Positions 2,876 through 42,871 are shown, counted from the first letter of the stretch. The stretch: 64,000 nucleotides of DNA from an uncultured Gammaproteobacteria bacterium (GCA_964536615.1 CAZHYG010000001.1:134200-198199); one strand, 5' to 3'. Notes: generated by a model from the letters alone, not told the origin. A program made the numbers and translations.

Positions 2876-3376
2876 CTAAATTTTGTCAACAATTTCAACC
2901 GTATCCCCTATTTTTAAACCCGCCCGCTCCGCAAAACCAGCCGGAACCTCCAAAACCATATCAGCAACACTGCGGGGACGATATACAGTCAACTGGTCTT
3001 CCGCCATACCCGCCTGCGAAACAAGCGATGGCGCAATATCTATTATTTTGCCTTGATTTAGCCAAATTATATCAAGTGAAAAACGCATATCTCGCATCAC
3101 CATAGCATGCCGATCGGACTGCGGAAAGATAAAAAGCATCCCACCATACTTCCCCATATCGGCACGGCCACTCCAACCCTTAAACCTGTGCGCAGGCGTA
3201 TCTGCTACCAAAACGCGTATTTTTTCCTGATTAATATAAATATTGGTTTTAGGCCATACATACCCATATATTTTATTTCCCAATGCCAAAACTATAATAA
3301 TCGCAAAAGCAACCAAGTGCCATTTTTTAAATGTTTTTGTCTGATTAGACATATGTTTTTTTGTTCTTACCAACAA
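2876..3376 (-). CDS. DUF192 (COG1430) domain protein with N-terminal membrane anchor
   Basis: Motif MLFIFP...HAMVMRDMRFSLDIIWL is typical of DUF192. 166 aa. Confidence 0.7.
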   Translation of the reverse strand: MLVRTKKHMSNQTKTFKKWHLVAFAIIIVLALGNKIYGYVWPKTNIYINQEKIRVLVADTPAHRFKGWSGRADMGKYGGMLFIFPQSDRHAMVMRDMRFSLDIIWLNQGKIIDIAPSLVSQAGMAEDQLTVYRPRSVADMVLEVPAGFAERAGLKIGDTVEIVDKI

Positions 3377-4409
3377 TATGACTTAATACAACCATAATAA
3401 CAATAAGCGCTGCCAGCGCATATACTTTTTGCAAACTCTGCAAAAACAGCGTGGCTATGCCAAAGAAAAAAGAAATTGCGTATAAAAATAATACGGATTG
3501 TTTTTGGGTAAACCCCGCATCTACCATTCTAAAATGCAAATGCTCTCTATCTCCAGAAAAAATACTTTGTTTTTTCCGTATTCTAATATACATAACTCGC
3601 AAAACATCCAGAACTGGAATAGCCATAACCAGCAACGCGGTAGCAAGCTTACCTCCGCCAATTACCGCCAAAACCGCTAGCATAAACCCGATAAACATAC
3701 TACCGCTTTCTCCTAAAAATATTTGAGCGGGATGAAAATTGAACAGCAAAAAACCAAGGCAGGACCCAAGAAATATAAGAGCGACCAAGCTCACATTGGG
3801 CTGATAAAACTTTGTAACGGCGGTTAGCAAAACAATAATAAACGCGCCTATGGAAACAACCCCCGCTGCCAAACCATCTAAACCATCTAAAATTTTTGTG
3901 GTATATGTCATGCCCAAAAACCAGCAAAACACCAGTACACTGCCAACAGCGTTCGCTAAAAAAAGATATCCGCCCAACGGGTTAGTAATCTTTGTCAGCC
4001 AAGGAAAGAATAGTGTGACAATAAGTATTGCCACCGCCACTAAAGGCAAGCGTATTGCCGCTGAAAATGGACGCAAATCATCCGCAATGCCTACAAGCAT
4101 AATAATCAGTGATCCGACCAAAGCAACCATAAGAGGATCGATGATTTTCTCTATACCGTATACTGGAAAATATACCATTACGGTGCAAACTGTAACCCAA
4201 AAAGACAAAAAAATTGCCAACCCACCCAGCAGCGGAGTTGGCTTGGCATGCAAATGACGGCTAGTGTCCGGCGTATCCACCACTCCCGCGCCATACGCAA
4301 ACTTTTTTATTAAAAAAGTCAAAAAAACCGAAATAATAAAAGATATAAAAAAATATAACATCATACTACTAATCAATAAACAAAGCTCCTTGCGCGCCAA
4401 TTGTAACAT
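3345..4409 (-). CDS. mraY: MraY/WecA-family polyprenyl-phosphate sugar-1-phosphate transferase (likely phospho-MurNAc-pentapeptide translocase)
   Basis: Multi-TM protein with GIADDLRP, KILDGLDGLAAG, HPAQIFLGESGS and DREHLHFR motifs of the MraY/WecA superfamily. Sits in dcw context downstream of mraZ-rsmH-ftsL. Confidence 0.65.
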   Translation of the reverse strand: MLQLARKELCLLISSMMLYFFISFIISVFLTFLIKKFAYGAGVVDTPDTSRHLHAKPTPLLGGLAIFLSFWVTVCTVMVYFPVYGIEKIIDPLMVALVGSLIIMLVGIADDLRPFSAAIRLPLVAVAILIVTLFFPWLTKITNPLGGYLFLANAVGSVLVFCWFLGMTYTTKILDGLDGLAAGVVSIGAFIIVLLTAVTKFYQPNVSLVALIFLGSCLGFLLFNFHPAQIFLGESGSMFIGFMLAVLAVIGGGKLATALLVMAIPVLDVLRVMYIRIRKKQSIFSGDREHLHFRMVDAGFTQKQSVLFLYAISFFFGIATLFLQSLQKVYALAALIVIMVVLSHIVGKNKKTYV

Positions 4410-7134
4410 TACTGCCGCGTTTTAACTTGCCTTGCAAAAATAGTTCTGCCATTTTATTTTCAACTTTTTCCTGCAAAGCGCGGCGCATCGGACGAGCGCC
4501 AAACTCAGGATCAAATCCGGCATCAGCCAAAAAATCAAGCGCTTCCTCTGTAGCCGAAATATGAACCCCTTTATTTTCCATATCTTTGGCAATACTGTCA
4601 AACATAAGCCGCGCCACCTGTTTAATAGCATCTCGTTCAAGAGAGTTAAACAGCACAATACCATCAAACCGATTTAAAAACTCTGGACGGAAGTAGTGGT
4701 GTAATTCTTCGTGCAATAATTGGCTTAACAGCTCATCGTGCGACACGCCAATTCTCGCCTGCTCGCGAACAAACAATGTACCTGCGTTTGAGGTGGCAAT
4801 AATAATAACATTGGTAAAATCAAATACACGGCCGGCGCTATCCGTGAGCCTACCATCATCCATTACCTGCAAAAATAAATTTAAAATATCCGGATCCGCC
4901 TTCTCAATTTCATCAAGCAATACCAAAGAAAACGGCGCTTTATGCACTGCTTCGGTTAAAATACCCGTGCCTTGAGAACCTGGCATGCCAATAAGGCGGT
5001 ACAGACTGGTTTTATCCTGATATTCACTCATATCCAGCCGAATCATGCGATTTTCTCCGCCAAAATAAATATCAGCAATAGTTTTGGCAAGCTCGGTTTT
5101 ACCAACACCTGTCGGACCTAAAAATAAAAAACTTGCCATCGGCCGCTTACGCGCATGCAAATCGGCGCGCGCTCGACGCAATGCTCCGGCTACCGCCTGC
5201 ACTGCTTCTTCTTGGCCCACCACTCGCTTGTGCATTTCTTCTTCCAAACGCATTAACTTTTCAGATTCATTGCCGGAAATTGCCGCCACCGGAATTTTAG
5301 TTTTTGCAGTAACTACCAGAGCAACTTCTTCCTTAGTAATAATTGCATGAGAGCCTTTTTTATTTTTAGTGTAGCTGGCTGATTCTGTCAAAAGCTCAAG
5401 GGCACTAACCGGCAACGGAGTATCATGGAAAAATTTTTTGGCAAACTCCACGCATTTCTCTATAGCCGCATATGAAAAAAACACCGAGTGCTTATACTCC
5501 AAAAATCCGGCCCGAGATTCTAAAACCTGTATTGCTTGATCTTCATTCATCTCGCCTATTTCAACCATGGTGAACATGCTTTTCAACGAAGACCCTAATA
5601 CATGCTGCGCATATCGCTCCGGGGTTGTAGTGGCAAACACGATTATATTTTTATCACTTAAAAATTCACGTAATGTATCTGCCATATCCAATCCGCCTTC
5701 TTGGCCTATCGTTATACCAATAAGCTCATCAATACCGCTAATATACAACACAACATTTCGCGCTCGCGCGGTTTCTTGCATAATACGCTGCACTCGCTCG
5801 GCCACCCCCTCAGGACTTGCGCCTGCCAGAAGCGACGAAATACCTAAACGCACTAAACGCTTATCTTTAAGCAAATCGGGCACCTCGCCCGCAACCATAC
5901 GCTGAGCCACATCTTCAATGATGGAATTTTTTCCAACACCAGTTTCTCCAACCAATAATATGCCTTTTTCTCCAGCTTCAACCATTTGAAACACTTCATC
6001 TAACTCATTACCGCGCGCCACGCACGGCTCTAATTGACCGTAGTGCGCCAGCACAGTTACATCGGTGCTAAAACTATTCAAATACGGTGTAGCCAAAGCA
6101 GTCATAGCCCTGTCCATACCATACTTTGAATGGTGTTTTACAGCTTTTTTAAAAACAAGATAATCCCGATGCATTTTTTCTTTCATGCGCGCCCACGCAA
6201 CAACATTGGCTAGCTGTCTTTCAGAAATATCATAATTAAATAGAATATTTTGAATCGCAGAATTGGCTGAAATGGCAAACATTAGCAATTCGGTTACGCT
6301 AACATAGGGCTGCTTGGCTGCAAACGCATTTTCATATGACTGAAAAATAATTTGCAAAACATCATTGGAAAGACGCGGTGACACCCCGGCATGAATTGGC
6401 GCGCTATTTACACACAACGCTTCGGCTTCTTTTAAGAGGACGCTTGACGGTATGCCAAGCCTGATAAAAATATTGCTAATACGATTGCAAGAAAGCAAAG
6501 CGTAAAATATATGCGCAGACTCCATTGCTGGCGAACGCACTTTGTTAGCGTACAAATAAGCCTTACCAAGCGCGGCCAGAGCCTCGGGAGTAAACCCAAT
6601 TGCAATATTTTTTTTGTTTTTTCTTGAAACGCGCACAGCTTCAGGCCATGAATCAATCGTAAGATCGTGTTCTTTTGATGAATTATTATAAAAATTAAAT
6701 AATCCAACCGTTTTATCAAAAGGTTCTTTCTGCCGCAACACGCGATACCACAGATATAATAGGGCTACTACTCCAAACCAAAATAGGAAAACAGACCATT
6801 TATCCAATGAAGCAACAAAGGCTGCCCATTGTTTTGGGTTCTTTAACACTGTAAACACACCTTGTTTATACACAAACAAGGCTGCCCATATCCAAGCATT
6901 GAGCCACAGAACGAGCACGGTAATAAATCTAATTATATTGAGCATTCGCCTTCCTGCCTGCAATCTAAGATTATATGTATCCAGCGGAAAACCCCAATAC
7001 AGCCAACTGCCGCGCAAACTTAACCCTGCGGCCATGCCACGGCATTGCGCGCATTTTTTAAAACCGCGCCTGCCCACGCCATTGCAAACGTCGCAAACAA
7101 GAAGCGGCAAAGGTTGATTTTTTTTAAACTCCAT
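4369..7134 (-). CDS. ClpA/ClpC-like double-AAA+ unfoldase with N-terminal C4 zinc ribbon and two TM helices
   Basis: CDVCNGVGRRGFKKCAQC zinc ribbon. Two hydrophobic helices. Clp_N-like repeat. AAA1 (GETGVGKNSI). AAA2 (GPTGVGKTELAK, DEIEKA, sensor region). No long ClpB middle domain. 921 aa. Confidence 0.75.
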   Translation of the reverse strand: MEFKKNQPLPLLVCDVCNGVGRRGFKKCAQCRGMAAGLSLRGSWLYWGFPLDTYNLRLQAGRRMLNIIRFITVLVLWLNAWIWAALFVYKQGVFTVLKNPKQWAAFVASLDKWSVFLFWFGVVALLYLWYRVLRQKEPFDKTVGLFNFYNNSSKEHDLTIDSWPEAVRVSRKNKKNIAIGFTPEALAALGKAYLYANKVRSPAMESAHIFYALLSCNRISNIFIRLGIPSSVLLKEAEALCVNSAPIHAGVSPRLSNDVLQIIFQSYENAFAAKQPYVSVTELLMFAISANSAIQNILFNYDISERQLANVVAWARMKEKMHRDYLVFKKAVKHHSKYGMDRAMTALATPYLNSFSTDVTVLAHYGQLEPCVARGNELDEVFQMVEAGEKGILLVGETGVGKNSIIEDVAQRMVAGEVPDLLKDKRLVRLGISSLLAGASPEGVAERVQRIMQETARARNVVLYISGIDELIGITIGQEGGLDMADTLREFLSDKNIIVFATTTPERYAQHVLGSSLKSMFTMVEIGEMNEDQAIQVLESRAGFLEYKHSVFFSYAAIEKCVEFAKKFFHDTPLPVSALELLTESASYTKNKKGSHAIITKEEVALVVTAKTKIPVAAISGNESEKLMRLEEEMHKRVVGQEEAVQAVAGALRRARADLHARKRPMASFLFLGPTGVGKTELAKTIADIYFGGENRMIRLDMSEYQDKTSLYRLIGMPGSQGTGILTEAVHKAPFSLVLLDEIEKADPDILNLFLQVMDDGRLTDSAGRVFDFTNVIIIATSNAGTLFVREQARIGVSHDELLSQLLHEELHHYFRPEFLNRFDGIVLFNSLERDAIKQVARLMFDSIAKDMENKGVHISATEEALDFLADAGFDPEFGARPMRRALQEKVENKMAELFLQGKLKRGSNVTIGAQGALFID

Positions 7135-7513
7135 ATAAGATTCCGTAAAATACTAACAAAGGCAGCGCCAGCCATAACAGAAAAAATAAAAAACAGCAGG
7201 CCAGCCAAACCGCTAAAGCAGCAGTGCGAAAAATAATCTGAACCAAACGCATAAAAAAACTGACAACCCTGCCCTGCCAATCATATTGCCCAAACATCGG
7301 TACAAAAATATGCGTCAACCATATGCCGGGAGCCAGAGTTTCATTGCCGCGCGCCAGCCATAACAAACATCGCTTGCCGGCGCGAACTGCGCCAGCGGTA
7401 TACCACCAAATCGGAAAATAAAAAATATCAAGTATGGCTTCCAAAAATAATTTTTCTAAAATAAGAATCATCATATGACAACATATATAGTATACCATAT
7501 AAGCCCGCAACAA
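7124..7513 (-). CDS. Hypothetical small membrane protein (TTG start in ORF track; internal ATG at 7498 possible)
   Basis: Hydrophobic 129-aa ORF between ftsL and the Clp-like gene. Start codon is non-ATG. No recognisable family. Confidence 0.35.
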   Translation of the reverse strand: MLRAYMVYYICCHMMILILEKLFLEAILDIFYFPIWWYTAGAVRAGKRCLLWLARGNETLAPGIWLTHIFVPMFGQYDWQGRVVSFFMRLVQIIFRTAALAVWLACCFLFFLLWLALPLLVFYGILYGV

Positions 7514-7541
7514 AAAATCCTCAATATGAGGATTTTTTAAG
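7507..7541. terminator. Bidirectional intrinsic terminator downstream of ftsL
   Basis: AAAAAA, then ATCCTCA-ata-TGAGGAT, then TTTTTT. Confidence 0.6.
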
Positions 7542-7558
7542 TGAGATAATATGAAAAA

Positions 7559-7918
7559 TTATTTTTTTGCCATCGCGCTGTTTGCGCTTGCCAAGAACTT
7601 AACATCAGTAACTTCGGTCATTTGAGTTTTTTGCACGCGTGAAGCAATACTGGCCATTGAAGTATTATCTGCAATTTCAACTTCCAGCCTGCGCACATCC
7701 AACTCCAAAGCGCTAGCTTGTTTTTCCAATAAACGCATTTGATAACCGCTGGTAGCTGAAGCGGTAATATTTACCACATAGGCAGCGCCGAAAGATACTA
7801 TAATGGCGCACAAACCAAGCCGTACCACTGGTGAAAATACCCAGGCTGGCAGCAAATCGGATTGGAAAGCTGCAGCAACGGTTCGTAATTTGTATGAAAT
7901 CTGGCGTTTAATGGACAT
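7559..7918 (-). CDS. ftsL: Cell division protein FtsL-like (single-pass membrane, coiled coil)
   Basis: 119 aa with a TM helix and a leucine-zipper-like segment. Sits immediately downstream of rsmH, as in dcw clusters. Confidence 0.6.
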   Translation of the reverse strand: MSIKRQISYKLRTVAAAFQSDLLPAWVFSPVVRLGLCAIIVSFGAAYVVNITASATSGYQMRLLEKQASALELDVRRLEVEIADNTSMASIASRVQKTQMTEVTDVKFLASANSAMAKK

Positions 7919-7928
7919 ATGTATAAAT

Positions 7929-8831
7929 TTATATTTTTTCTATAACTCGTAATTTTGCACTGCGCGCGCGAGGGTTATTTTTTAACTCCTCTTCGCCGGC
8001 TACAATCGGTTTTTTATTTACCAGTCGTATTTTTTTATTTTCTTGTGATTTAAAATATTGTTTTACAATCCTATCCTCCAAAGAATGAAACGTGATAACT
8101 GCCAATCTTCCATGCGGCGCCAAGAGCTCCAGCGCTTCGGGCAAAACTTTTTTAATACTTTCCAGCTCTTGATTGACCTCTATGCGCAGCGCTTGGAATA
8201 CTTTTGTGGCCGGATGAATACCGCCCACCCACGGCACTTCTTTATCTGTTTTTAATTTCTTTCTATATTGGGACAAAATTATTTCAGTTAATTCACCGGT
8301 TGTTTCGATCTGTTTATTTTTTCTATAAAACACTATGGCGGCGGCAATTTCCGCGCTTAACTGTTCTTCTCCCAACATTTTAAAAATCAAATGCAAATCA
8401 TGTTCCGAGTAAGTATTAACTATTTCCGCAGCGGTTTGGCCTTCACCGGCGCTATAACGCATATCCAGAGGCTCATTGTTTAAAAAACTAAACCCTCTCC
8501 CCCGCTCTTCAAACTGCGGTGTGGACCAGCCAAAATCCATGAGCATGCCTTGCACTTCTGTAAAATTGTGCGCAGCGGCAACCGAAGCAATATGCGCAAA
8601 GTTTTCTCGAACCAGCACAGCCCGATCTTCAAAGCGATATAAAAATCGTTTGGCGCGCAAAACCGCTTCGGGGTCTGCATCAACACCAAGCAGCATGCCG
8701 TTTGGAGAAATTTTTTCCAGCATAGCCTCACTATGCCCCGCATCTCCGAGGGTGCAATCAATAACTCGCATTCCTGGCGCTAGTTGTAAAGAACTGATCG
8801 TTTCATCTAATAAAACCGGTACGTGTTTCAT
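7929..8831 (-). CDS. rsmH: 16S rRNA (cytosine1402-N4)-methyltransferase RsmH (MraW)
   Basis: MKHVPVLLDE...IDCTLGDAGHS signature. 300 aa. Follows mraZ. Confidence 0.93.
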   Translation of the reverse strand: MKHVPVLLDETISSLQLAPGMRVIDCTLGDAGHSEAMLEKISPNGMLLGVDADPEAVLRAKRFLYRFEDRAVLVRENFAHIASVAAAHNFTEVQGMLMDFGWSTPQFEERGRGFSFLNNEPLDMRYSAGEGQTAAEIVNTYSEHDLHLIFKMLGEEQLSAEIAAAIVFYRKNKQIETTGELTEIILSQYRKKLKTDKEVPWVGGIHPATKVFQALRIEVNQELESIKKVLPEALELLAPHGRLAVITFHSLEDRIVKQYFKSQENKKIRLVNKKPIVAGEEELKNNPRARSAKLRVIEKI

Positions 8832-8846
8832 AATGCGAATCTATAA

Positions 8847-9278
8847 TTAAACTCCCAATTCCCCCATTTTTTCAGCTATCGTTCCGCTTTCAGCTTCAGT
8901 TTGTTTTTTATAGGCGTTCCACAATTCCTGATCCCAAATTTCCAAACGATTATACAAACCTGCAATTACTAAATTTTTCTTGATACCCGCAAAACTGCGC
9001 AGATATTCAGGCAAAATTACTCTGCCCTGTTTATCCATTTCCACATCCATAGCTCCGGCCAACATTAAACGTGAAAACGCTCTGGTGTTGGATTGGCTAA
9101 TGGGCAAGTTTGCCAATTTCTCAGCAAGTTTTTCCCACTCGGTTTTGGTGTACAAAAACAAACAATTATCCAAACCTCGGGTAACAACCGCCCCTTTGCT
9201 TAAATCACGGCGAAATTTTGCCGGCACAGCCATGCGGCCCTTATCGTCTAAATTGTGGCTATATTCGCCAATGAACAT
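8847..9278 (-). CDS. mraZ: Transcriptional regulator MraZ
   Basis: MFIGEYSHNLDDKGRMAVPAKFR and duplicated MraZ domain. 143 aa. Confidence 0.92.
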   Translation of the reverse strand: MFIGEYSHNLDDKGRMAVPAKFRRDLSKGAVVTRGLDNCLFLYTKTEWEKLAEKLANLPISQSNTRAFSRLMLAGAMDVEMDKQGRVILPEYLRSFAGIKKNLVIAGLYNRLEIWDQELWNAYKKQTEAESGTIAEKMGELGV

Positions 9279-9467: not shown

Positions 9468-10817
9468 CTACACTTCAACTTGCACGCCTGGTTCGGCGGG
9501 TTCTGCCAGCACATGTTCTTTTTTAGATAATTTTTCAGCTAAATCTTCCGAGACATTTTCTTCACCGTGATTTAAAATAACTCTTTTCGGCTTGCCTGCA
9601 CCAATCCATGCCAGCAACTTTTCCTGATCCGCATGAGCCGACAACGCGCCAATCGCTTTTACATGGCAGCGCACCGGAATTCTTTCTCCCATAATTTCCA
9701 CCGGCGAATGTCCTTCTAAAATTTTTCTACCCAACGTTCCTTCGGATTGATACCCAACAATTAAAAGCGTATTTCTTTCATCGGATAAATATCTCATGGC
9801 GTGATGTAAAATTCTTCCTCCAGTCATCATGCCCGCGCCGGCGATAATAATTTTTGGCCCAGGCGTACTATTTATTTTTTTAGACTCTTCTTTTGTTTCA
9901 GTCATAACGAGTCCCGGAAAATCAAACAGGTCGTCGCCATTTTTTACAAAACCGGCAGCTTCAGCATCATAATATTTTGTATATTTAAGATAAATACGGG
10001 TTGCTTTGATGGCCAGCGGACTATCTACAAAAATCGGTATGCGCGGCAGCAAATGTTTGCGGTCAACGATTGTATTTAATTCGTAAATAAGTTCTTGGGT
10101 TCTTTCCAAAGAAAAAGACGGGATCATGAGTACGCCTCCGGTAGAAATGGCCGTGGAAATTAAAGCTGTCAGTGTTTCTTCGCGGTTCTTCATTTCTTCA
10201 TGCATGCGATTGCCATATGTTGATTCACATACCAACACATCGATATCCGAAGGCAGTGCTTCCGTGTCTCGCAAAATTGGCACGCGCACATTTCCCACAT
10301 CTCCGGAAAACACAACTTTTTTTCCTTCGGCGCGAATTTCTATAAACGCTGAACCAAAAATATGGCCGGCATCGTGAAAAGTCGCAGATACATCCGGAGC
10401 TATTTCTACAGAGCTGTTATATTCAACCGCCACACATCGCTCCATGACCGCCGCAATGTCGGCTGAATCATACAAAATCTCGGCGCCCTCATATCGATGA
10501 TTGTGAACCATGATTTGCGCCGCGTCTTCTAAAATAAGTTCTAACAGTTCAATGGTTGGGGCTGTAGCAAAAAATTTGCCCTGATAGCCTTGTTTTACCA
10601 AAATTGGCAGCCTGCCTACATGGTCTAAGTGAGCGTGCGTAACAAGCACCGCCTGTAATTGCGCCGGATCAAACTTCAATGGTTCTTTATTTTTTTCTTC
10701 TTTCATATAACCGCCTTGATACATGCCGCAATCAACCAAAAAATACCGCCCGGCTGCTGTAAACATGGTGCATGACCCGGTTACTTCTCCTGCTCCTCCA
10801 TAAAAAGAGATGTTCAT
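9468..10817 (-). CDS. MBL-fold beta-CASP ribonuclease (RNase J/CPSF-like metallo-hydrolase)
   Basis: HAHLDHVGRLP motif, beta-CASP and RNA-metabolising MBL C-terminus. Start placed at MNISFYGGAGEV. The ORF track extends to 10919 with a hydrophobic, AT-rich, probably spurious leader. Confidence 0.8.
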   Translation of the reverse strand: MNISFYGGAGEVTGSCTMFTAAGRYFLVDCGMYQGGYMKEEKNKEPLKFDPAQLQAVLVTHAHLDHVGRLPILVKQGYQGKFFATAPTIELLELILEDAAQIMVHNHRYEGAEILYDSADIAAVMERCVAVEYNSSVEIAPDVSATFHDAGHIFGSAFIEIRAEGKKVVFSGDVGNVRVPILRDTEALPSDIDVLVCESTYGNRMHEEMKNREETLTALISTAISTGGVLMIPSFSLERTQELIYELNTIVDRKHLLPRIPIFVDSPLAIKATRIYLKYTKYYDAEAAGFVKNGDDLFDFPGLVMTETKEESKKINSTPGPKIIIAGAGMMTGGRILHHAMRYLSDERNTLLIVGYQSEGTLGRKILEGHSPVEIMGERIPVRCHVKAIGALSAHADQEKLLAWIGAGKPKRVILNHGEENVSEDLAEKLSKKEHVLAEPAEPGVQVEV

Positions 10818-10932
10818 ACTATATATTGCAGTTAGAAAACATAAAAACAGTATATCAAAAACAAATAAAGCAAACAAATAAAGCCCTACCCAAAAAAATA
10901 TTTTTCTGATACAATACATCTACTAAAAATGT

Positions 10933-35189: not shown

Positions 35190-36263
35190 CTAAAGCTCCG
35201 TTCGCAATTCTTCTAGGCGTTTTCTAGTGTCTTTATGTATCTTTTTAGGAACTCTGATTTTTATTTTAACATAATGATCTCCACGATTACCACCTCCTAG
35301 TTTATTCATGCCTTTATGCTTAATACGAATCAACTGCCCCGATTCAACACCTTCTGGCACAACCAATGTCACTAACTCATCAAGAGTTTGCACTTGAATT
35401 TTATCTCCCAATACTGCCTGTACAAAACTAATTTCCTGTTCTGTGTACACATCTGAACCGTCTCGCGAAAAACCGGATAACGGTTTTACACGCACGCGCA
35501 CATACAGACTACCGGGTACACCGCCAAACGGAGCTGCCTCACCATAGCCATCTAAACGAATAGACTGACCACTTTCTATTCCGCCTGGTATTTTAATTTT
35601 AATATTTGAATTGCTTTGTATTACTCCAGAACCATGGCAATGCTTGCATTTTTTTGCAGGTTTTTCTCCTCTACCCTGGCACGCATCACAAGGAGCCGCG
35701 GCTTGCATCGCGCCCAAAAAAGTGTGCTGTATTTTAGTTACCTGTCCGCGACCGTTACATGTAGAGCATTTTTCCATTTTTGAACCTGGTTCTGCTCCAG
35801 ATCCATGACAAATATCACATGCGTTCTGCTTGCGCAGTGTAATTTCTTTTTCCGCGCCAAATGCAGCTTCTTTAAAATCTATTTCTACATCTACCTGAAT
35901 GTCTTGTCCGCGATTTTGGCGATGCCCCCCTCGACCGCCGCCAAATAAATCACCGAAAATATCACCAAAATCTCCTCCGGCAAAACCACCGCCCCTGAAC
36001 GCACTCATAACATCTTCCCAACCAGCCCCATTGCTAAAACCGCCCTGCTGTTCAAAATCAGAGCCAAACTGGTCATAACGCTGTCGTTTTTCCGCATCAC
36101 TTAGGACTTGATATGCTTCATTTATCTCTTTAAACTTCGCCTCATCTCCGCCTGGTCGGTCTGGATGGTGCTGCATGGCTGCTTTTTTAAAGGCTTTTTT
36201 TATTTCATCGGCAGAAGCATTTTTTTCTACACCGAGAATTTTGTAATAATCTTTGTTGGCCAT
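35190..36263 (-). CDS. dnaJ: Chaperone DnaJ
   Basis: J domain (KDYYKILGV...HPDR), G/F region, four CxxCxGxG zinc repeats and C-terminal domains. Start at MANKDYY. The ORF track extends to 36293. Confidence 0.93.
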   Translation of the reverse strand: MANKDYYKILGVEKNASADEIKKAFKKAAMQHHPDRPGGDEAKFKEINEAYQVLSDAEKRQRYDQFGSDFEQQGGFSNGAGWEDVMSAFRGGGFAGGDFGDIFGDLFGGGRGGHRQNRGQDIQVDVEIDFKEAAFGAEKEITLRKQNACDICHGSGAEPGSKMEKCSTCNGRGQVTKIQHTFLGAMQAAAPCDACQGRGEKPAKKCKHCHGSGVIQSNSNIKIKIPGGIESGQSIRLDGYGEAAPFGGVPGSLYVRVRVKPLSGFSRDGSDVYTEQEISFVQAVLGDKIQVQTLDELVTLVVPEGVESGQLIRIKHKGMNKLGGGNRGDHYVKIKIRVPKKIHKDTRKRLEELRTEL

Positions 36264-36273
36264 AATTCTAAAT

Positions 36274-36744
36274 TTAAGCTCCTCCCAAAACAAGTTTCGA
36301 AATTTCTTTTATTCTGTCTTGCAAATTTTGTACTGCAATTTTTTTACCTTTTTCATCAAATTTAACATGTGCATTATACACTTTTTGTGCTGGATTTTTA
36401 TTATTCAACCAAGCTCCAAAATAAATCTTTGATTCTTTGCCTGTTGCTTTGGCATGCGCAATAGATAGCTGGACTTTTTGATCAAGCTCCTTACAACACT
36501 GAAATAATACATCCAACTCAGCCTTAACAGCACCACTGTCTAATTCTTTGCTACGTATTTGCTGAATTTCACGAAAAATACTTTTAAACTGCCCCCAAAT
36601 CAGCAGGTCTTCCTCATCTAATTGAGCAGTATCGCGCACGCTTGCAGCCGTTGCATCTGTTTCTCTAATTTTTTCAATAATACTTTTAATTTCCATCCGA
36701 AAAGACTCTAGCCTAGCAGTTTCTGATTCATAATGCTCTGACAT
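36274..36744 (-). CDS. Hypothetical alpha-helical protein inserted between dnaK and dnaJ
   Basis: 156 aa, no known family. Weak similarity to the adjacent 147-aa ORF (shared FRxEI and KxxGKxxxIAQ segments). 10-bp spacer to dnaJ implies co-transcription. Confidence 0.45.
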   Translation of the reverse strand: MSEHYESETARLESFRMEIKSIIEKIRETDATAASVRDTAQLDEEDLLIWGQFKSIFREIQQIRSKELDSGAVKAELDVLFQCCKELDQKVQLSIAHAKATGKESKIYFGAWLNNKNPAQKVYNAHVKFDEKGKKIAVQNLQDRIKEISKLVLGGA

Positions 36745-36756
36745 AATAAAAACTAA

Positions 36757-37200
36757 TTATAACACGCCAAATGTTTCTAACTGCTGCGCTAAATCTTGTT
36801 TAGTTTCAGCAAAATTACTGCGATCATCAATACTCTCTAAACTATAAGCAAGCGTACTTAAGACATTGACTATCCAATTTGAAAAAATATGCCTGCTGTT
36901 TAATACATCACCCGGATCATTTGAAAAAATATCTTCTAGATCGCGCTTAACCTTTAAGTGATATTCCTCGCTATTTTTAATATCAGAAAAATTATCTGCA
37001 TCTTTTACGGTATTATAAAAATTTTTAATAATCTCCTTACTTCTTTCCCACATCTGCATTTCTTTTAACCCTAATTCATTTACATCTACTTGAGCAATTG
37101 TTCCATCTTTACCATGTAATTTATCTTTTAAAGCTTGTATTTCCGCCCTAAACGGGCGCAGCACAGCCTCTTTACCAACCTCAATCGCTGATTCTTTCAT
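36757..37200 (-). CDS. Hypothetical alpha-helical protein inserted between dnaK and dnaJ
   Basis: 147 aa, no known family. Probable paralogue of 36274..36744. Confidence 0.45.
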   Translation of the reverse strand: MKESAIEVGKEAVLRPFRAEIQALKDKLHGKDGTIAQVDVNELGLKEMQMWERSKEIIKNFYNTVKDADNFSDIKNSEEYHLKVKRDLEDIFSNDPGDVLNSRHIFSNWIVNVLSTLAYSLESIDDRSNFAETKQDLAQQLETFGVL

Positions 37201-37217
37201 AGAATAAAGACAGGATA

Positions 37218-37241
37218 ACCCGCCCCTATTACGGGGCGGGT
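37218..37241 (-). terminator. GC-rich hairpin immediately after dnaK (possible intra-operon attenuator)
   Basis: ACCCGCCCC-tattac-GGGGCGGGT is a perfect 9-bp GC stem. The U-tract on the minus strand is interrupted (UAUCCUGUCUUU). Confidence 0.4.
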
Positions 37242-37254
37242 TGCTAAATTATAA

Positions 37255-39156
37255 TTATTTTACCACTTCGCCTTCAATCGGGCCTTGTTCATCTTTTTTT
37301 TCTTCTCCACCCGAAGCCGCAGCGTCAGCGCCTGGCTGGCCAGCCTGTCCGGCTTGGTACATTTTAGCGCCAACTGCCTGAGCAACTTTGGATAGCTCTT
37401 CTGATGTTTTTTTAATCGCCTCTACGTCATCTTTATCTTTAACTTCTTTTACCGCTTTTAAGGCGTCATTAATTTTATTTTTTTCATCGTCAGTAACTGC
37501 CACTTTTTTCTCTTCTACTTCTTTCATCATTTTTTCAGTGGTATATACCATGGTATCGGCAATATTACGTGCCTCAATAAGCTCCTGTTTCTTTTTGTCT
37601 TCAGTCGCATGCACCTCTGCGTCTTGTTTCATTTTTTCCACTTCTTCTTTAGATAAACCAGTAGACGCTTCAATACGAATTGACTGTTCCTTATTGGTTG
37701 CCTTATCTTTAGCCTTCACATTTAAAATACCGTTAGCGTCAATATCAAAAGTTACTTCTACCTGTGGCACGCCGCGCGGAGCCGGTGGAATACCATCCAA
37801 AATAAATCGGCCGAGTGTTTTGTTGTCAGCGGCCATAGGGCGCTCGCCTTGCAACACATTAATTTCTACCGCTGGCTGATTGTCCGCTGCTGTAGAAAAT
37901 ACTTGGCTCTTAGAAGTTGGAATAGTGGTATTGCGTTCAATAAGCTTGGTCATTACCCCACCCATAGTTTCAAGACCAAATGATAGCGGAATAACATCAA
38001 GCAACAACACATCATGCACCTCACCTTTGAGCACACCCGCTTGCACAGCCGCACCAATAGCCACCACCTCATCCGGATTCACACTAATATTTGGTTTTTT
38101 GTTGAAAAACTTTTCTACAATTTGCAACACAAGCGGCATGCGAGTCATACCACCAACCATTACAACTTCATGCAAATCATTAGCTGATAATTTTGCATCT
38201 TCCAACGCCTTGCGAACTGGCACCAGTGTTTTCTCCACCAAATCACCAACCAACTCTTCCAATTTAGCGCGTGTTAATTTCATTACCAAGTGTTTTGGTC
38301 CGGAAGAATCAGAGGTAATAAACGGCTGATTAACTTCGGTTTCTTGAGCGGTAGAAAGCTCAATTTTGGCTTTTTCCGCGGCCTCTTTAATGCGCTGCAA
38401 TGCCAACGGATCTTTGCTCAAATCAATACCCTGGTCTTTTTTAAATTCTTCCAAAATCCATGAGATTATTTTTTGGTCAAAATCATCGCCGCCCAAATGA
38501 GTGTCGCCATTAGTGGATAATACCTGAACTGTATCGGCGCTAACTTCCAAAATAGAAATATCAAAGGTACCACCGCCCAAATCGTAGACTGCAATCTTTT
38601 GATCTTTTTTCTTATCAAAACCATATGCCAATGCGGCTGCGGTTGGTTCGTTAATAATACGCAATACATTTAAGCCTGCGATAGTGCCTGCGTCTTTAGT
38701 AGCCTGTCTTTGCGAATCATCAAAATATGCCGGCACAGTAATAACGGCTTCAGTGATTTTTTCTCCTAATTTTTCTTCTGCATCGCTTTTTAACTTTTGC
38801 AATACCATGGCAGAAATTTCTTGAGGGGTATATTCTTTGCCCTGCATTTCAATTTTTACCTTGTCATCACTTTTGATAATTTTAAACGGCAATAACGACA
38901 AATCGCGCTGCACTTCAGCATCTTCAAAACGGCGGCCAATAAGGCGCTTCACTGAATACAAAGTATTTTGCGGGTTAGTTACGGCTTGGCGCTTAGCCAA
39001 TTGACCTACTAATCGCTCACCTGCTTTAGACATTGCAACAATGGAAGGAGTGGTGCGATTACCTTCTTTATTTTCTAACACTTTTGGCTGCCCACCTTCG
39101 ATGACTGCGACACAGCTGTTGGTGGTACCAAGATCAATTCCGAGAACTTTAGACAT
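37255..39156 (-). CDS. dnaK: Chaperone DnaK (Hsp70)
   Basis: [26 protein letters not shown] and IVLVGG signatures, plus substrate-binding and lid domains. 633 aa. Confidence 0.96.
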
Positions 39157-39210
39157 ATGAATGAATTTAAATTAAACTTATTTAAAACAAATAGGATTAT
39201 TTATGAGTAA

Positions 39211-40218
39211 TTAAATACCCTCTAACAGACTAATTGAATTAGGATCTCTTAACAGAGTTTCTAAAGCTTTTTTGTAATCATGCATTTTACGCTCTTTTCT
39301 TCTAGCTCCGGAATTATAATCTTCTAGCAAGCCGCGGACCGTGTCTAAACTTACATGTTTTTCCTGTAATAACGAAAGCAGGGCTTTTTGATCTTCCAGA
39401 CTTTCGTCTATCATATCTTCCACATCATAGAATGGCTCATAAACGCTCTGCTCATCAATAACAGCCTGTACTTTATTTTTCAAATCTTGAGATGCAGATT
39501 TGCTTGTCTGATACCGCTTACCAACTTCCGCAATTAAATACGGATTTATTCCGCCGCTTCTAACCATTTTCAAAATTTCTTTTGGTGATTTTGAATTTAA
39601 AATATACGCAATCTTCCTCAGTACATAGTATGAACGGGGCGAATCATTATTAAGAGAAACATGTTCGCTTAAATTATAATCTAACTTATCTATCGCCCTA
39701 AGGACTTCAACTATTTTGAAAAAATTAGAATTATTCTTATACGCTTTATTCTGCGCATATCTTTCCAGCAAACGGAGTAAAACCGTATAATTAATAACAC
39801 CTTGAGTATCAGCAGAGCGAGTTTTATCTATCCTACCACCAACTAACGCAACCAAATCTTTTGCGCTCGTATCTTTCACGATAGCCTCGACATCATTTAA
39901 AACTTTATCAAATGTTGGGTGTAAATCATCTACAGATGAAGCAAAGTCACTGGCTGTCAAACCAGCACCCTCCCCACCCAAAGTACGCTGCACACTTGGA
40001 AAACCAAAACTTAGTTCTACAGCTCCAGCACTTTCGCTAGACGACTGATCAGCAACTTGATTTTCATCAATCACTACAGTGGTGCGCCCATCTTCGGAAT
40101 CAAAGGCAATATCCCTACTAACTTGCTCTGGACTTTCAGGAGACTGTAAGCGATCAAATGCTTCTTCAATATCATGCTCATCAGGCAATTCACCTGATAA
40201 CGGTCTGCGCTCACTCAT
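39211..40218 (-). CDS. Hypothetical protein inserted between grpE and dnaK (acidic disordered N-terminus, helical C-terminal half)
   Basis: 335 aa with no recognisable domain. Spacers of 4 bp to grpE and 54 bp to dnaK imply it is in the operon. Confidence 0.45.
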   Translation of the reverse strand: MSERRPLSGELPDEHDIEEAFDRLQSPESPEQVSRDIAFDSEDGRTTVVIDENQVADQSSSESAGAVELSFGFPSVQRTLGGEGAGLTASDFASSVDDLHPTFDKVLNDVEAIVKDTSAKDLVALVGGRIDKTRSADTQGVINYTVLLRLLERYAQNKAYKNNSNFFKIVEVLRAIDKLDYNLSEHVSLNNDSPRSYYVLRKIAYILNSKSPKEILKMVRSGGINPYLIAEVGKRYQTSKSASQDLKNKVQAVIDEQSVYEPFYDVEDMIDESLEDQKALLSLLQEKHVSLDTVRGLLEDYNSGARRKERKMHDYKKALETLLRDPNSISLLEGI

Positions 40219-40222
40219 ATAA

Positions 40223-40744
40223 TTATTTATTAATAATAACTCGTGCCGGTTTAATGATTTTATCTCCTCGCTTGTATCCGCCTTCTACTTCTTTGAGCAC
40301 TGCTCCGGATTCGGTGTTGCCAGATTCTTCTTCGCCAATAGCTTCGTGCAGGCGCGGATCAAATTTTTCACCAACTGTTTTTATTTCTTCAACCTGATAA
40401 CTTTTTAAAATATCTCCAAACTGTTTTTTGATATACCCTATGCCATCCGCCCATTGCTGCCAGCCATTTTCCGAGGACATGCTGTCTTTATGGGCAAAGG
40501 CTTTTTTAAAATTTTCATACACTGGAATAAATTCTTCTAAAATATATTCCTCGCTGGCTTTGGCCCAAATACCGCGCATGTCGGCTGTTTCTTTTTGCAG
40601 ATTTTTATAATCTGCCAAGGCGCGCTGCCAACCAGATTTGTATTCTTCCATTTCAGTTTTACATTTTTCACAATTTTCACAAGCTGGCTTATCTGGATTT
40701 TCTGGTACAATTTGTTCGTCGGGCAATATTTGTTCATCAGTCAT
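40223..40744 (-). CDS. grpE: Nucleotide exchange factor GrpE
   Basis: Coiled-coil region GWQRALADYKNLQKE and C-terminal beta-domain FDPRLHEAIG. 173 aa. Confidence 0.88.
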   Translation of the reverse strand: MTDEQILPDEQIVPENPDKPACENCEKCKTEMEEYKSGWQRALADYKNLQKETADMRGIWAKASEEYILEEFIPVYENFKKAFAHKDSMSSENGWQQWADGIGYIKKQFGDILKSYQVEEIKTVGEKFDPRLHEAIGEEESGNTESGAVLKEVEGGYKRGDKIIKPARVIINK

Positions 40745-40759
40745 ACGAGTAAAAGCTAT

Positions 40760-41440
40760 TTAAATAATCTCCAATAATTTTTTAATTAGACTAAAATTAT
40801 ATTTATAATCCATGCGCTTTGGCCCAAGCAGCGCCACCATGCCTTCTTTACCAAATCGCGCCGACACCACACTCAGTGTTTCATCAAACGGATTCTCGCT
40901 GCCAATAAAGTAACGCGGCGAATCTTCTACCTTATCAAAAAAATCTTCTAGATAATCTTCAAAATGATCAAATACCTGAGAAACATTAGCCACCCTATTT
41001 ACATCCGCAAATTCTGATTTATTAAACAAATTAGACAAACCTGTATAATATATTTTTTCTGGTGAAAAAGCGATTATAACTGTTTCGTTAGAAAGGTCTT
41101 TGGCAGCTTTGGCCAATCTTTTTCTAGCCAGCTCGTAATCTTCAATCGCCGCCACCGCATTAACCAAGGACTGAAAATCATTTTTAGGAATATTGCTATT
41201 TTCTAAATTTAGCTGATCTACATAATATCTATATCCTTTTTCGGTTGGGATTCTGCCAGCCGATGTGTGCGGATGAGTTAAGAAACCCTCTTCTTCAAGT
41301 TCGCGCAATTCATTTCGGACTGTCGCTTCACCAAAGTCAAGCTCGCCAATGGAAACCAAAAATTTAGAACCGATTGGCTCTGCATTTTTGATATAATGTT
41401 CTATTACCATGGTAAGCAACTGATGTTTGCGGCTATCCAT
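40760..41440 (-). CDS. hrcA: Heat-inducible transcriptional repressor HrcA (short form)
   Basis: N-terminal wHTH (EHYIKNAEPIGSKFL...ATVRNELRELEEEGFL). 226 aa, shorter than the typical ~340-aa HrcA. Confidence 0.8.
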   Translation of the reverse strand: MDSRKHQLLTMVIEHYIKNAEPIGSKFLVSIGELDFGEATVRNELRELEEEGFLTHPHTSAGRIPTEKGYRYYVDQLNLENSNIPKNDFQSLVNAVAAIEDYELARKRLAKAAKDLSNETVIIAFSPEKIYYTGLSNLFNKSEFADVNRVANVSQVFDHFEDYLEDFFDKVEDSPRYFIGSENPFDETLSVVSARFGKEGMVALLGPKRMDYKYNFSLIKKLLEII

Positions 41441-41569: not shown

Positions 41570-42136
41570 TTATATCTTGCCAATTTCGCTTAGTAGCACG
41601 TTTTCCACATATATGCCTCTGGCATAAAAAATACGCTCCAATTCATTCTTTAGCTCCATTTCTACCGCGTCGCGCTTACTGCCTACAATTTCTTGGTAAT
41701 CAAACTTGCTAAACACCATACGGACACGACTGCGAATAGTTGGGCGGACAATCTTTGCCACAAAATCCTCGCCGATTGTTTGCCAAATTGATGGTACCTG
41801 GTGCACATCCAAACGCAACAAGATGGTTCCTTCCACTCCCAAGCGCTGACCGTCTTTACTACCCGCAGCAATCGGAATATCGCCCATGGCTCGCTCGTTC
41901 TCCGGATTAAACTGTCGAGAAATGCTGTATTCTAATGTTTGCGTATTAAATAATTTTGCTTTTTGCCAAAATGGAATTTTGAGATGCAGGCCTGGAGTTA
42001 AAACTTTTTTTAATACACCTCTCCCTAAATCATATACACAGGCCACATACCCTGGAGGGACATTGATAAACAGCCCTTTCAGAACATCATCCATTACAAA
42101 CGAATACATTAATTTATCCAGAGAATCTCCTGACAT
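41570..42136 (-). CDS. SPFH/band-7 (prohibitin/HflC-like) domain protein
   Basis: 188 aa matching the SPFH core (PGLHLKIPFWQKAKLFNTQTLEYS...VEGTILLRL). Confidence 0.6.
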   Translation of the reverse strand: MSGDSLDKLMYSFVMDDVLKGLFINVPPGYVACVYDLGRGVLKKVLTPGLHLKIPFWQKAKLFNTQTLEYSISRQFNPENERAMGDIPIAAGSKDGQRLGVEGTILLRLDVHQVPSIWQTIGEDFVAKIVRPTIRSRVRMVFSKFDYQEIVGSKRDAVEMELKNELERIFYARGIYVENVLLSEIGKI

Positions 42137-42151
42137 ATTGATATAAAAATA

Positions 42152-42871
42152 TTAATGATGACCGGCGGCTTTCGGTTTTGATTTTTTTTCTGAAAACAGC
42201 GTTTTTCTAATAAACGTAATGGTATCAGAAAAAATCATGGTTGTCAAAATAAATAACGATTTAACCATTGGCAAGTACCATAAAATAGTGAAGGTAAATA
42301 GCGGAAATAGAAACAAAAATGTCATTTTAGCGCTATCTTTTTTGCTTTGCGAAAACTCATTAAGATAAATTGAAAAAAATAAATAGATCGCTACAACACC
42401 TGACCAAAATACATTATGGTGCACGCCAATATTCGTGCCATAAAAATCCGTGTTAATCTTGCCTGGAAAATCTATCCAGTAATACAACAATTTAATAATA
42501 CGATCTCCGGTAATACCGCGAATAAACACTTGATACAAGAGCACAAACACCAATATTTGAAAACCGAGCAATACTACTTTAGCCCATGGTGATACGTGGT
42601 TTTTTTTCATTACGCGCCTGATTTCCTCTTTTTGCGCTATAACATCATTTTTAAATGCCCGGGCAGCTTGTTTTGCCTGCTCCTGAACTTCTTTTTCACG
42701 AATCGCGTCTCGTTCGGAAATAAATGTAAGTGGCAACAAAATAACACGCAAAAAAATAGTGAGCCAAACAACAGCCCACCCCATATTTCTTTCCGCGATA
42801 TTTAAATAGATCCAAATAAGCGCGTTAAATAACGGCTGATAGAGATATGTTGCCCAAAAATAACTTAGCAT
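42152..42871 (-). CDS. yidC: YidC/Oxa1-family membrane protein insertase (short form)
   Basis: LYQPLFNALIWIY...GWAVVWLTIFLRVILLPLT matches the first YidC core TM helix. About 5 TM helices. 239 aa. Confidence 0.6.
   Translation of the reverse strand: MLSYFWATYLYQPLFNALIWIYLNIAERNMGWAVVWLTIFLRVILLPLTFISERDAIREKEVQEQAKQAARAFKNDVIAQKEEIRRVMKKNHVSPWAKVVLLGFQILVFVLLYQVFIRGITGDRIIKLLYYWIDFPGKINTDFYGTNIGVHHNVFWSGVVAIYLFFSIYLNEFSQSKKDSAKMTFLFLFPLFTFTILWYLPMVKSLFILTTMIFSDTITFIRKTLFSEKKSKPKAAGHH

Follow-up and report, generated by a model that had tools for sequence, protein, structure and literature searches.

Clp/Hsp100 ATPases are described in textbooks as soluble threading machines. We analysed a 64,000-nucleotide stretch of DNA from an entry titled "uncultured Gammaproteobacteria bacterium" (GCA_964536615.1, CAZHYG010000001.1:134200-198199; hereafter the window) that encodes, on its minus strand, a Clp/Hsp100-like protein anchored in the membrane, directly preceded by a gene for a small conserved membrane protein. 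The two genes are referred to below as the cassette, and the first and second AAA+ modules of the Clp-like protein as D1 and D2. The cassette comprises the following features, with positions counted in the window and residues in the Clp-like protein.

4369..7134, minus strand: Clp/Hsp100-like gene, 921 amino acids from an ATG start, membrane-anchored, with two AAA+ modules.
6967..7101, minus strand: cytoplasmic C4 zinc ribbon followed by the conserved beta-hairpin motif WLYWGYPLTRYxL, residues 12-56; cysteines conserved, AlphaFold2 beta strands at 12-46.
6865..6945, minus strand: transmembrane helix 1, residues 64-90; Kyte-Doolittle peak of 2.15 at 70-88, AlphaFold2 helix 53-90 with a predicted local distance difference test (pLDDT) value of about 90.
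6802..6864, minus strand: short, poorly conserved external loop, residues 91-111; 22% mean identity, three Lys or Arg residues.
6727..6801, minus strand: transmembrane helix 2, residues 112-136; Kyte-Doolittle peak of 1.93 at 115-133, AlphaFold2 helix 112-136.
6607..6726, minus strand: variable, flexible tether of about 40 residues from the membrane to the N-domain, residues 137-176; pLDDT 59-71, 22% identity.
6133..6606, minus strand: Clp_N-like eight-helix N-domain, residues 177-334; TIGR02639 alignment from residue 188, AlphaFold2 helices.
6019..6132, minus strand: family-specific linker SKYGMDKAMTALATPYLNSFS, residues 335-372; 70% mean identity, with A343, T345, A346 and T349 invariant.
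5335..6018, minus strand: D1 AAA+ module, residues 373-600, catalytically degenerate as judged from motif alignments.
4372..5214, minus strand: D2 AAA+ module and D2-small domain, residues 641-921, ATPase motifs intact.
4951..4992, minus strand: D2 pore-loop region IGMPGSQGTGILTE, residues 715-728; four-residue deletion relative to ClpA/B/C, with loss of the GYVG tyrosine.
7124..7474, minus strand: conserved small membrane-protein gene, about 116 amino acids from the conserved Met; defined by tblastn, homologue search and AlphaFold2.

Pfam matches in the Clp-like protein were AAA_2 (PF07724, E = 2e-50), ClpB_D2-small (PF10431, E = 2.5e-25), AAA (PF00004, twice) and AAA_lid_9 (PF17871), which is the tandem AAA+ arrangement of class-I Clp/Hsp100 proteins, the second module being of AAA_2 type with a ClpB_D2-small domain. 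The NCBIfam ClpA model (TIGR02639) aligned in one collinear stretch, residues 188-912 corresponding to model positions 8-732 of 734. None of the curated equivalog cut-offs was reached, the scores being 482 bits for ClpA (cut-off 993), 523 for ClpB (1232), 402 for ClpV (885) and about 422 for both ClpG and ClpK (1900). HMMER alignments to ClpC and ClpB gave about 300 bits with 36-38% identity across the AAA+ core, and these were the best matches for D2. An AlphaFold2 model built from 95 family sequences had a mean pLDDT of 85.8 and showed, in order, a small beta-stranded zinc ribbon at 12-46, a long helix at 53-90 and two short ones, a further helix at 112-136, a tether of low confidence at 137-176, an N-domain of eight helices at 183-334 and the two AAA+ modules. 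In Foldseek comparisons the AAA+ core superposed on ClpC and ClpB structures over about 580 residues (TMt 0.80-0.85, root-mean-square deviation about 4 Å). The Clp_N family (PF02861) is recorded among the precomputed matches of P0001, which is identical to the Clp-like protein, and of homologues; the isolated N-domain gave no Pfam match at E<=1. The coiled-coil M-domain insertion is missing: the protein is collinear with ClpA, which has no M-domain, the AlphaFold2 model contains no such element, nothing corresponds to ClpC residues ~445-458, and residues 588-632 of the query belong to both HMMER domains. No peptidase family was present among the Pfam or NCBIfam matches. The Clp-like protein is a class-I Clp/Hsp100 member by fold and domain order, with a layout nearest to ClpA and a D2 sequence nearest to ClpC/ClpB; our confidence in these architectural statements is high.

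Ahead of this core lies an N-terminal module that combines a zinc ribbon with a membrane hairpin. The ribbon reads C14-D-V-C17-N-G-V-G ... C28-A-Q-C31-R-G, that is C14xxC17-x10-C28xxC31 with the pattern CxxCxGxG-x5-CxxCxG, and all four cysteines were retained in 94/101 full-length homologues. Its match to the Pfam DnaJ_CXXCXGXG family was weak (E = 0.011) and fell under the cut-off. Five full-length proteins (P0065, P0100, P0106, P0107 and P0116) had lost the ribbon cysteines and kept the transmembrane hairpin, and the zinc ribbon therefore appears dispensable in some lineages. Over the full protein length, a Kyte-Doolittle scan with a 19-residue window detected only two hydrophobic segments, and these recur in full-length homologues. 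The counts of Lys plus Arg (11 in residues 1-63, 3 in 89-111 and 9 in 133-185) fit a hairpin with both termini inside, so that the ribbon and the AAA+ rings would be cytoplasmic. A homologue search by word index, run with the N-terminal 199 residues alone, returned no match. An exhaustive phmmer search of 1.84 billion cluster representatives with residues 1-140 yielded 61 matches, of which the complete ones were 888-963 amino acids long and the rest apparent fragments; as all are family members or fragments, the anchor module is confined to the family.

An N-terminus of this kind could be suspected of being an annotation artefact, the first 160 residues resulting from a mis-called start or a fusion with the upstream gene, and some database entries (858-905 amino acids) do begin at an internal Met past the zinc ribbon. 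This explanation can be practically discounted. About 100 homologues of 895-935 amino acids cover 99-100% of the query including its N-terminus, which indicates that the start was not mis-called. The cysteine conservation given above, motifs kept down to about 30% identity and pLDDT values of 80-95 for residues 1-136 likewise speak against a mis-called start or a fusion, and the stop codon of the upstream open reading frame (ORF) lies 11 nt inside the Clp-like gene, past its ATG.

The ATPase motifs of both rings were surveyed in a MAFFT alignment of 101 full-length family members with Escherichia coli ClpA, and were cross-checked by HMMER alignments to Bacillus subtilis ClpC and against distant members including a Komeilibacteria protein. 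The family lacks the features of a competent D1, namely a GKT Walker A, an hhhhDE Walker B and arginine fingers. In D1, GKT is replaced in a Walker A of the form G-x-x-G-V-G-K-[K/R/N]-[S/T] (G396ETGVGKNS404 in the query), in which G396, G399 and G401 are invariant and K402 is present in at least 90% of members. The Walker B IDE has become I-[H/N]-N in the family and I-S-G in the query (S466-G467), and the RRF arginine-finger pair has given way to non-basic residues, the query reading K-S-M-F (515-524, SSLKSMFTMV). At the place of the KYR pore loop the family has [T/S]-P-[A/S/E], represented in the query by AGASPEGV (437-444), with an aromatic residue in 0/101 members. Judged by these motifs, D1 is catalytically degenerate across the family.

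D2 retains a complete set of ATPase motifs. Its Walker A (673-681) is GPTGVGKTE in 98/101 members, its Walker B (738-746) is LLDE[IL]EKA with D741 and E742 invariant, and sensor-1 (780-785, ATSNAG), the arginine finger (816-824, RPEFLNRFD, with N821, R822 and F823 invariant) and sensor-2 (879-885, GARPMRR) are all present; G673, T675, G676, G678, K679, T680, D741, E742, N783, R822, R881 and R884 are invariant or nearly so. The D2 pore loop, which is G-A-P-P-G-Y-V-G-[FY]-x-x-G-G in ClpA/B/C, reads I-G-x-P-G-x-x-G-T-G in the family, and only 3/101 members have an aromatic residue in this segment. Neither the D1 KYR nor the D2 GYVG type of aromatic pore loop is thus a family feature. Two very distant members, P0281 and P0299, have a longer, full-length D2 segment with a tyrosine (GAPAGAATYKSGGYLTE and FSHGVGEEGTGGYLTE), which suggests from the sequences that GYVG was lost stepwise; both proteins may be intermediates. 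At the position of the ClpP-docking loop (795-797), aligned by HMMER with VGF of ClpC, the loop is seven residues shorter than that of ClpC. The query has IGV here, but the family reads [A/N/Q]G[V/L/I], so that an [LIV]-G-[FL] tripeptide is not conserved at family level, and docking of ClpP through IGV was dropped on this ground. Mean identity to the query was 74% for the large domain of D2, 70% for the linker, 52% for D1, 42-45% for the zinc ribbon and transmembrane helices and 22% for the outer loop and cytoplasmic tether. The values for D1 and D2-large argue that both rings are under selection.

An earlier note on this stretch, written from the sequence alone, had described a membrane-anchored, double-ring unfoldase with an N-terminal zinc ribbon. 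The architecture it proposed, with the zinc ribbon, the anchor and the double AAA+ core, proved real and conserved in about 100 homologues. The same is true of the two transmembrane helices, seen both as Kyte-Doolittle peaks and as AlphaFold2 helices, and of the start codon, since the homologues do not begin at the Clp_N domain. Its remark that no ClpP-docking motif was apparent is borne out for the family as a whole. The designation as a double-ring unfoldase is not supported, as D1 is without Walker B, arginine fingers, the canonical Walker A Thr/Ser and the pore tyrosine, and D2 is without GYVG.

The second component of the cassette overlaps the start of the Clp-like gene with its stop codon. 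A search found 341 homologues of about 112-125 amino acids. The 120 listed are nearly all 109-128 amino acids long and belong to no Pfam family; those among them that are named are called "hypothetical", and those with a stated source organism come from Patescibacteria. The motifs Y-F-P-x-W-W-Y-x-x-G and F-x-P-M-x-G-Q-x-D-x-x-G-R-x-x-S-x-x-x-R do not vary, not even in Komeilibacteria. AlphaFold2 predicted two long helices (2-47 and 66-115, pLDDT 91), and the last 30 residues are strongly hydrophobic. No match was obtained in Pfam or NCBIfam, nor with Foldseek against the PDB (best E = 1.6), and an identity as YggT, CrgA or FtsB, which we considered, found no support in these searches. By tblastn, 84/84 related loci have the gene directly before the Clp-like one, in the same orientation; its stop is -11 to +12 nt from the Clp-like start in about 65/86 loci, and it is retained in a distant lineage without the surrounding division and cell wall (dcw) genes.

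A full-length search with the Clp-like protein gave 155 matches, about 100 of which were 895-935 amino acids long and 40-70% identical. Homologues from named organisms belonged to Patescibacteria (Magasanikbacteria, Parcubacteria, Nomurabacteria) and carried the labels "ClpC/ClpA ATP-binding subunit" or "AAA family ATPase"; one named distant family member is from Komeilibacteria. The pattern D[RK]AMTA[LV][AQ]T, which is derived from the linker and specific to the family, was used to scan GTDB species genomes and showed that at least 204 of these species-level genomes encode a relative, and those with meaningful names were mostly Magasanikbacteria or Patescibacteria. Many SPIRE-type metagenome-assembled genome records with this Patescibacteria-type locus (L007, L008, L010-L013 and others) are titled "uncultured Gammaproteobacteria bacterium", and one "Candidatus Udaeobacter"; such titles look like placeholders or mis-binned labels. 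We found no description of this Clp-like family in the literature.

The cassette is embedded among the following genes and signals.

8847..9278, minus strand: mraZ.
7929..8831, minus strand: rsmH (Methyltransf_5).
7559..7918, minus strand: FtsL-like gene; weak NCBIfam FtsL_Actino match, conserved in related loci.
7512..7538, minus strand: hairpin resembling a terminator, with a T-run, in the spacer from ftsL to the small ORF; -15.3 kcal/mol on folding, z = -3.6.
3345..4409, minus strand: GT4 polyprenyl-phosphate sugar-phosphate transferase; overlaps or abuts the Clp-like stop.
2876..3376, minus strand: DUF192 gene, from Pfam.

This order, mraZ-rsmH-ftsL, hairpin, small gene, Clp-like gene and then a GT4 transferase or FtsW, is the usual one, and mraZ-rsmH-ftsL precede the cassette in nearly all loci with enough sequence. 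The hairpin was skipped by a simple terminator scan, which counted the T-run into the stem, and was confirmed by direct folding. An equivalent hairpin with a T-run is found in 53/57 related loci, conserved as a feature and not in sequence. This recurrence after ftsL suggests that the cassette is probably a separate or attenuated transcription unit, and the hairpin may act by attenuation to set how strongly the cassette is expressed relative to mraZ-rsmH-ftsL. Directly downstream of the Clp-like gene, 65 of the 79 loci with room for a further gene carry GT4, followed in most of them by DUF192, and 11 carry a 117-residue protein and FtsW. This sub-lineage (L002:9772-11238 and ten other loci; L002, L003 and L028 are the same contig) has the conserved 117-residue membrane protein and FtsW (SEDS) in place of GT4-DUF192. 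In another, distant lineage, GT4 and DUF192 are fused into one protein of 527 amino acids (L005:9741-11324, plus strand; compare 2876..4409, minus strand, in the window), which implies a functional link between DUF192 (COG1430) and the polyprenyl-phosphate glycosyltransferase.

The GT4 gene of the window scored 105 bits with WecA (TIGR02380, cut-off 326) and 60 with MraY (TIGR00445, cut-off 192), both below cut-off, and its matches to MraY in the PDB were weak (<=52 bits). With WecA outscoring MraY, an identity as MraY was not confirmed. The linkage to the dcw cluster asserted in the earlier note is evident in the mraZ-rsmH-ftsL head upstream, and the terminator it saw behind ftsL is the hairpin at 7512-7538. 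Its placement of the Clp-like gene between ftsL and mraY was imprecise: on the ftsL side the small membrane-protein gene, which the note did not list, intervenes, and on the other side the GT4 gene resembles WecA more than MraY. Nor does the locus look like one from which ftsI and murE were displaced, as had been implied; instead the dcw cluster is fragmented in this lineage. ClpP, ClpX, ftsI, murE and mraY were all absent from the scanned ORFs of the 64-kb window, which carries murJ, murA, murG, hrcA-grpE-dnaK-dnaJ, yidC and a gene for a Band-7 protein.

Several other features of the window were recorded. A heat-shock cluster at 35190..41440 (minus strand) has the order hrcA-grpE-(335-residue unknown)-dnaK-(two unknowns of about 150 residues)-dnaJ and is thus broken by ORFs without a family; next to it, outside its hrcA end, are genes for a Band-7/SPFH protein (41570..42136) and a YidC-like protein (42152..42871). 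An ORF of 1233 amino acids at 49714..53415 (minus strand) matched no Pfam family at E<=1e-5 and may encode a large surface protein, and proteins containing DUF5667 and DUF11 are encoded a few kilobases away (53686..55041 and 56422..58212). A beta-CASP/RMMBL ORF resembling RNase J (9468..10919, minus strand) has, as listed, a 34-residue hydrophobic extension ahead of its second Met (MNISFYGG...), which represents a membrane anchor or else a start called too far upstream.

The Clp-like protein shares features with several known systems and coincides with none of them. Like ClpA, it has a collinear N-domain, D1, D2 and D2-small domain, no coiled-coil M-domain and the same AAA+ fold; unlike this family, ClpA is soluble, has two active rings with KYR and GYVG pore loops and docks ClpP through an IGL loop. 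ClpC, ClpB and Hsp104 match D2 best in sequence and structure and share the ClpB-type D2-small domain, whereas the Clp-like protein has no M-domain, and hence no site for regulation of the MecA or DnaK type, a dead D1, no GYVG, a membrane anchor and a zinc ribbon. ClpE and ClpX also bear a C4 zinc-binding module at the extreme N-terminus of a Clp ATPase, but they are soluble, dock ClpP and possess aromatic pore loops, and the zinc motif of the Clp-like protein is of the DnaJ type (CxxCxGxG) with a transmembrane hairpin directly after it. In NSF D2 and Pex1/Pex6 D1, one of two rings does not hydrolyse ATP and is thought to serve assembly. These type-II AAA+ proteins with one inactive ring belong, however, to another AAA+ clade, and their active ring retains its pore-loop aromatics. 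FtsH, Msp1 and archaeal LonB likewise have an N-terminal transmembrane anchor and a cytoplasmic AAA+ ring at the membrane. They use aromatic pore loops and threading to extract or degrade membrane proteins, with a protease domain in FtsH and LonB; the Clp-like protein has neither protease domain nor pore-loop aromatic, so that anchoring is the sole resemblance to the FtsH type.

A likeness in features is also seen with Torsins of the eukaryotic ER and nuclear envelope. These are AAA+ proteins related to Hsp100 D2 that associate with the membrane through an N-terminal hydrophobic segment, have no aromatic pore loops and pair with a degenerate AAA+-like partner domain, and a non-threading mode has been proposed for them, in contrast to Clp/Hsp100 proteins, whose aromatic pore loops grip and pull polypeptides (PMC5425593). 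The Clp-like protein is similarly a membrane-associated D2-type AAA+ without aromatic pore loops and with a degenerate AAA+ module. It differs in that Torsins have a single AAA+ domain, are luminal and lack an arginine finger, which LAP1 or LULL1 supplies in trans, whereas the Clp-like protein keeps its D2 arginine finger, has its degenerate D1 in cis and is cytoplasmic.

Our preferred reading, for which we consider the balance to be about even, is that the Clp-like protein is a Patescibacteria-specific derivative of class-I Clp/Hsp100 ATPases, encoded in a two-gene cassette, that is independent of ClpP, driven by D2 alone and tethered to the membrane, and whose targets, shared with the small partner, are proteins of the envelope or of division. 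Its motif content indicates that it is probably not an ordinary protein-threading unfoldase. D1, having no catalytic acid and no arginine finger and having kept the P-loop glycines and lysine, would form a non-hydrolysing ring, possibly still binding nucleotide, for assembly or scaffolding in the manner of NSF D2 or Pex1/6 D1, and D2 would be the sole motor. The loss of aromatic pore loops from both rings, together with that of the ClpP loop, makes processive threading and delivery to a protease unlikely. Cycles of ATP in D2 would more likely power the local remodelling of membrane-associated clients, their assembly and disassembly, or their activation, with recognition provided by the zinc ribbon, the N-domain and the small membrane partner. 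The neighbouring genes that are conserved, with ftsL on the upstream side and FtsW or a polyprenyl-phosphate glycosyltransferase on the downstream side, suggest envelope-synthesis or division proteins as the probable clients. An AAA+ protein acting on wall synthesis has been described, SpoVK, which activates the peptidoglycan enzyme MurG, a wall-synthesis glycosyltransferase (PMC10659427).

Our confidence in the functional reading as a whole is moderate to low, and several points weigh against it. The hexameric state, the ATPase activity, the binding of the small protein and the clients are all matters that we infer. The gene order is conserved within one clade and may partly reflect shared ancestry rather than function, and the link to division is circumstantial, given that a hairpin with a T-run splits the cassette from ftsL and that one distant lineage lacks the dcw context. 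The glycine-rich D2 loops could contact the polypeptide backbone and so might permit some translocation. A more specific version, which we advance as a speculation with perhaps a modest chance of being correct, sees in the cassette the Torsin principle realised in bacteria: an ATPase of Hsp100 descent, tethered to the membrane, would have given up threading and, having its degenerate AAA+ partner in cis in the form of D1 and a small membrane subunit dedicated to it, would assemble, activate or disassemble enzyme complexes of the envelope or the divisome, involving FtsL/FtsW or the polyprenyl-phosphate glycosyltransferase, in minimal Patescibacteria cells.

The most conventional alternative is a membrane-tethered unfoldase or disaggregase that threads divisome or envelope proteins for quality control. 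The overall ClpC/ClpB fold, the intact D2 ATPase motifs, the Clp_N-like substrate or adaptor domain and an anchor analogous to that of FtsH would all suit such a machine, as would the tyrosine in the longer D2 loop of the distant P0281 and P0299. Mutations of the GYVG tyrosine abolish threading in ClpB, Hsp104 and ClpX, however, and in this family a four-residue deletion has taken that very tyrosine. Together with the absence of pore-loop aromatics (0/101 in D1, 3/101 in D2) and the loss of Walker B and the arginine fingers from D1, this leads us to regard a conventional unfoldase as unlikely. The missing loops also count against a ClpP-coupled chaperone of the ClpA/ClpC/ClpE type, since they would be needed for translocation into ClpP. 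In such a system IGV at 795-797 would pass membrane substrates to ClpP, and HMMER does align R-I-G-V-S of the query with the Y-V-G-F-N docking loop of ClpC; an N-terminal zinc finger is also found in ClpE. Across the family, though, a hydrophobic residue occupies the first position of the tripeptide only in rare members, the query among them, the loop is seven residues shorter than in ClpC, and the window lacks ClpP and ClpX among its scanned ORFs. We consider coupling to ClpP very improbable.

If threading is given up and D1 is dead, the protein might be thought a catalytically silent pseudo-ATPase, a scaffold that tethers partners at the membrane with no energy-dependent function, and the loss of pore loops in both rings is compatible with this. 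The state of D2 speaks against it. Among members diverged to about 40% identity, D2 shows full or nearly full conservation of Walker A and B, sensor-1, the arginine finger and sensor-2, and its large domain is the most conserved region of the protein; this conservation and the 74% identity argue for retained ATP hydrolysis and render a silent scaffold improbable.

In this reading a whole clade, comprising several hundred protein clusters and present in at least 204 species-level genomes, departs from the textbook picture of Clp/Hsp100 proteins, combining a membrane anchor, one inactive ring and pore loops disarmed in both rings with an ATPase ring that is strongly conserved and a small membrane protein as obligate partner. 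The Hsp100 scaffold would then have been repurposed in bacteria too, beyond the eukaryotic cases of Torsins and the plant SMAX1/D53-type proteins. The annotation "ClpC/ClpA ATP-binding subunit of Clp protease" is probably misleading for inventories of proteostasis in Patescibacteria, and the small partner merits a family description of its own. The Clp-like family should be of interest to specialists of AAA+ proteins and of Patescibacteria alike: the constant position of the cassette next to ftsL and an envelope glycosyltransferase or FtsW offers a testable lead on how such bacteria, ultra-small and for the most part uncultivated, divide and build their walls.

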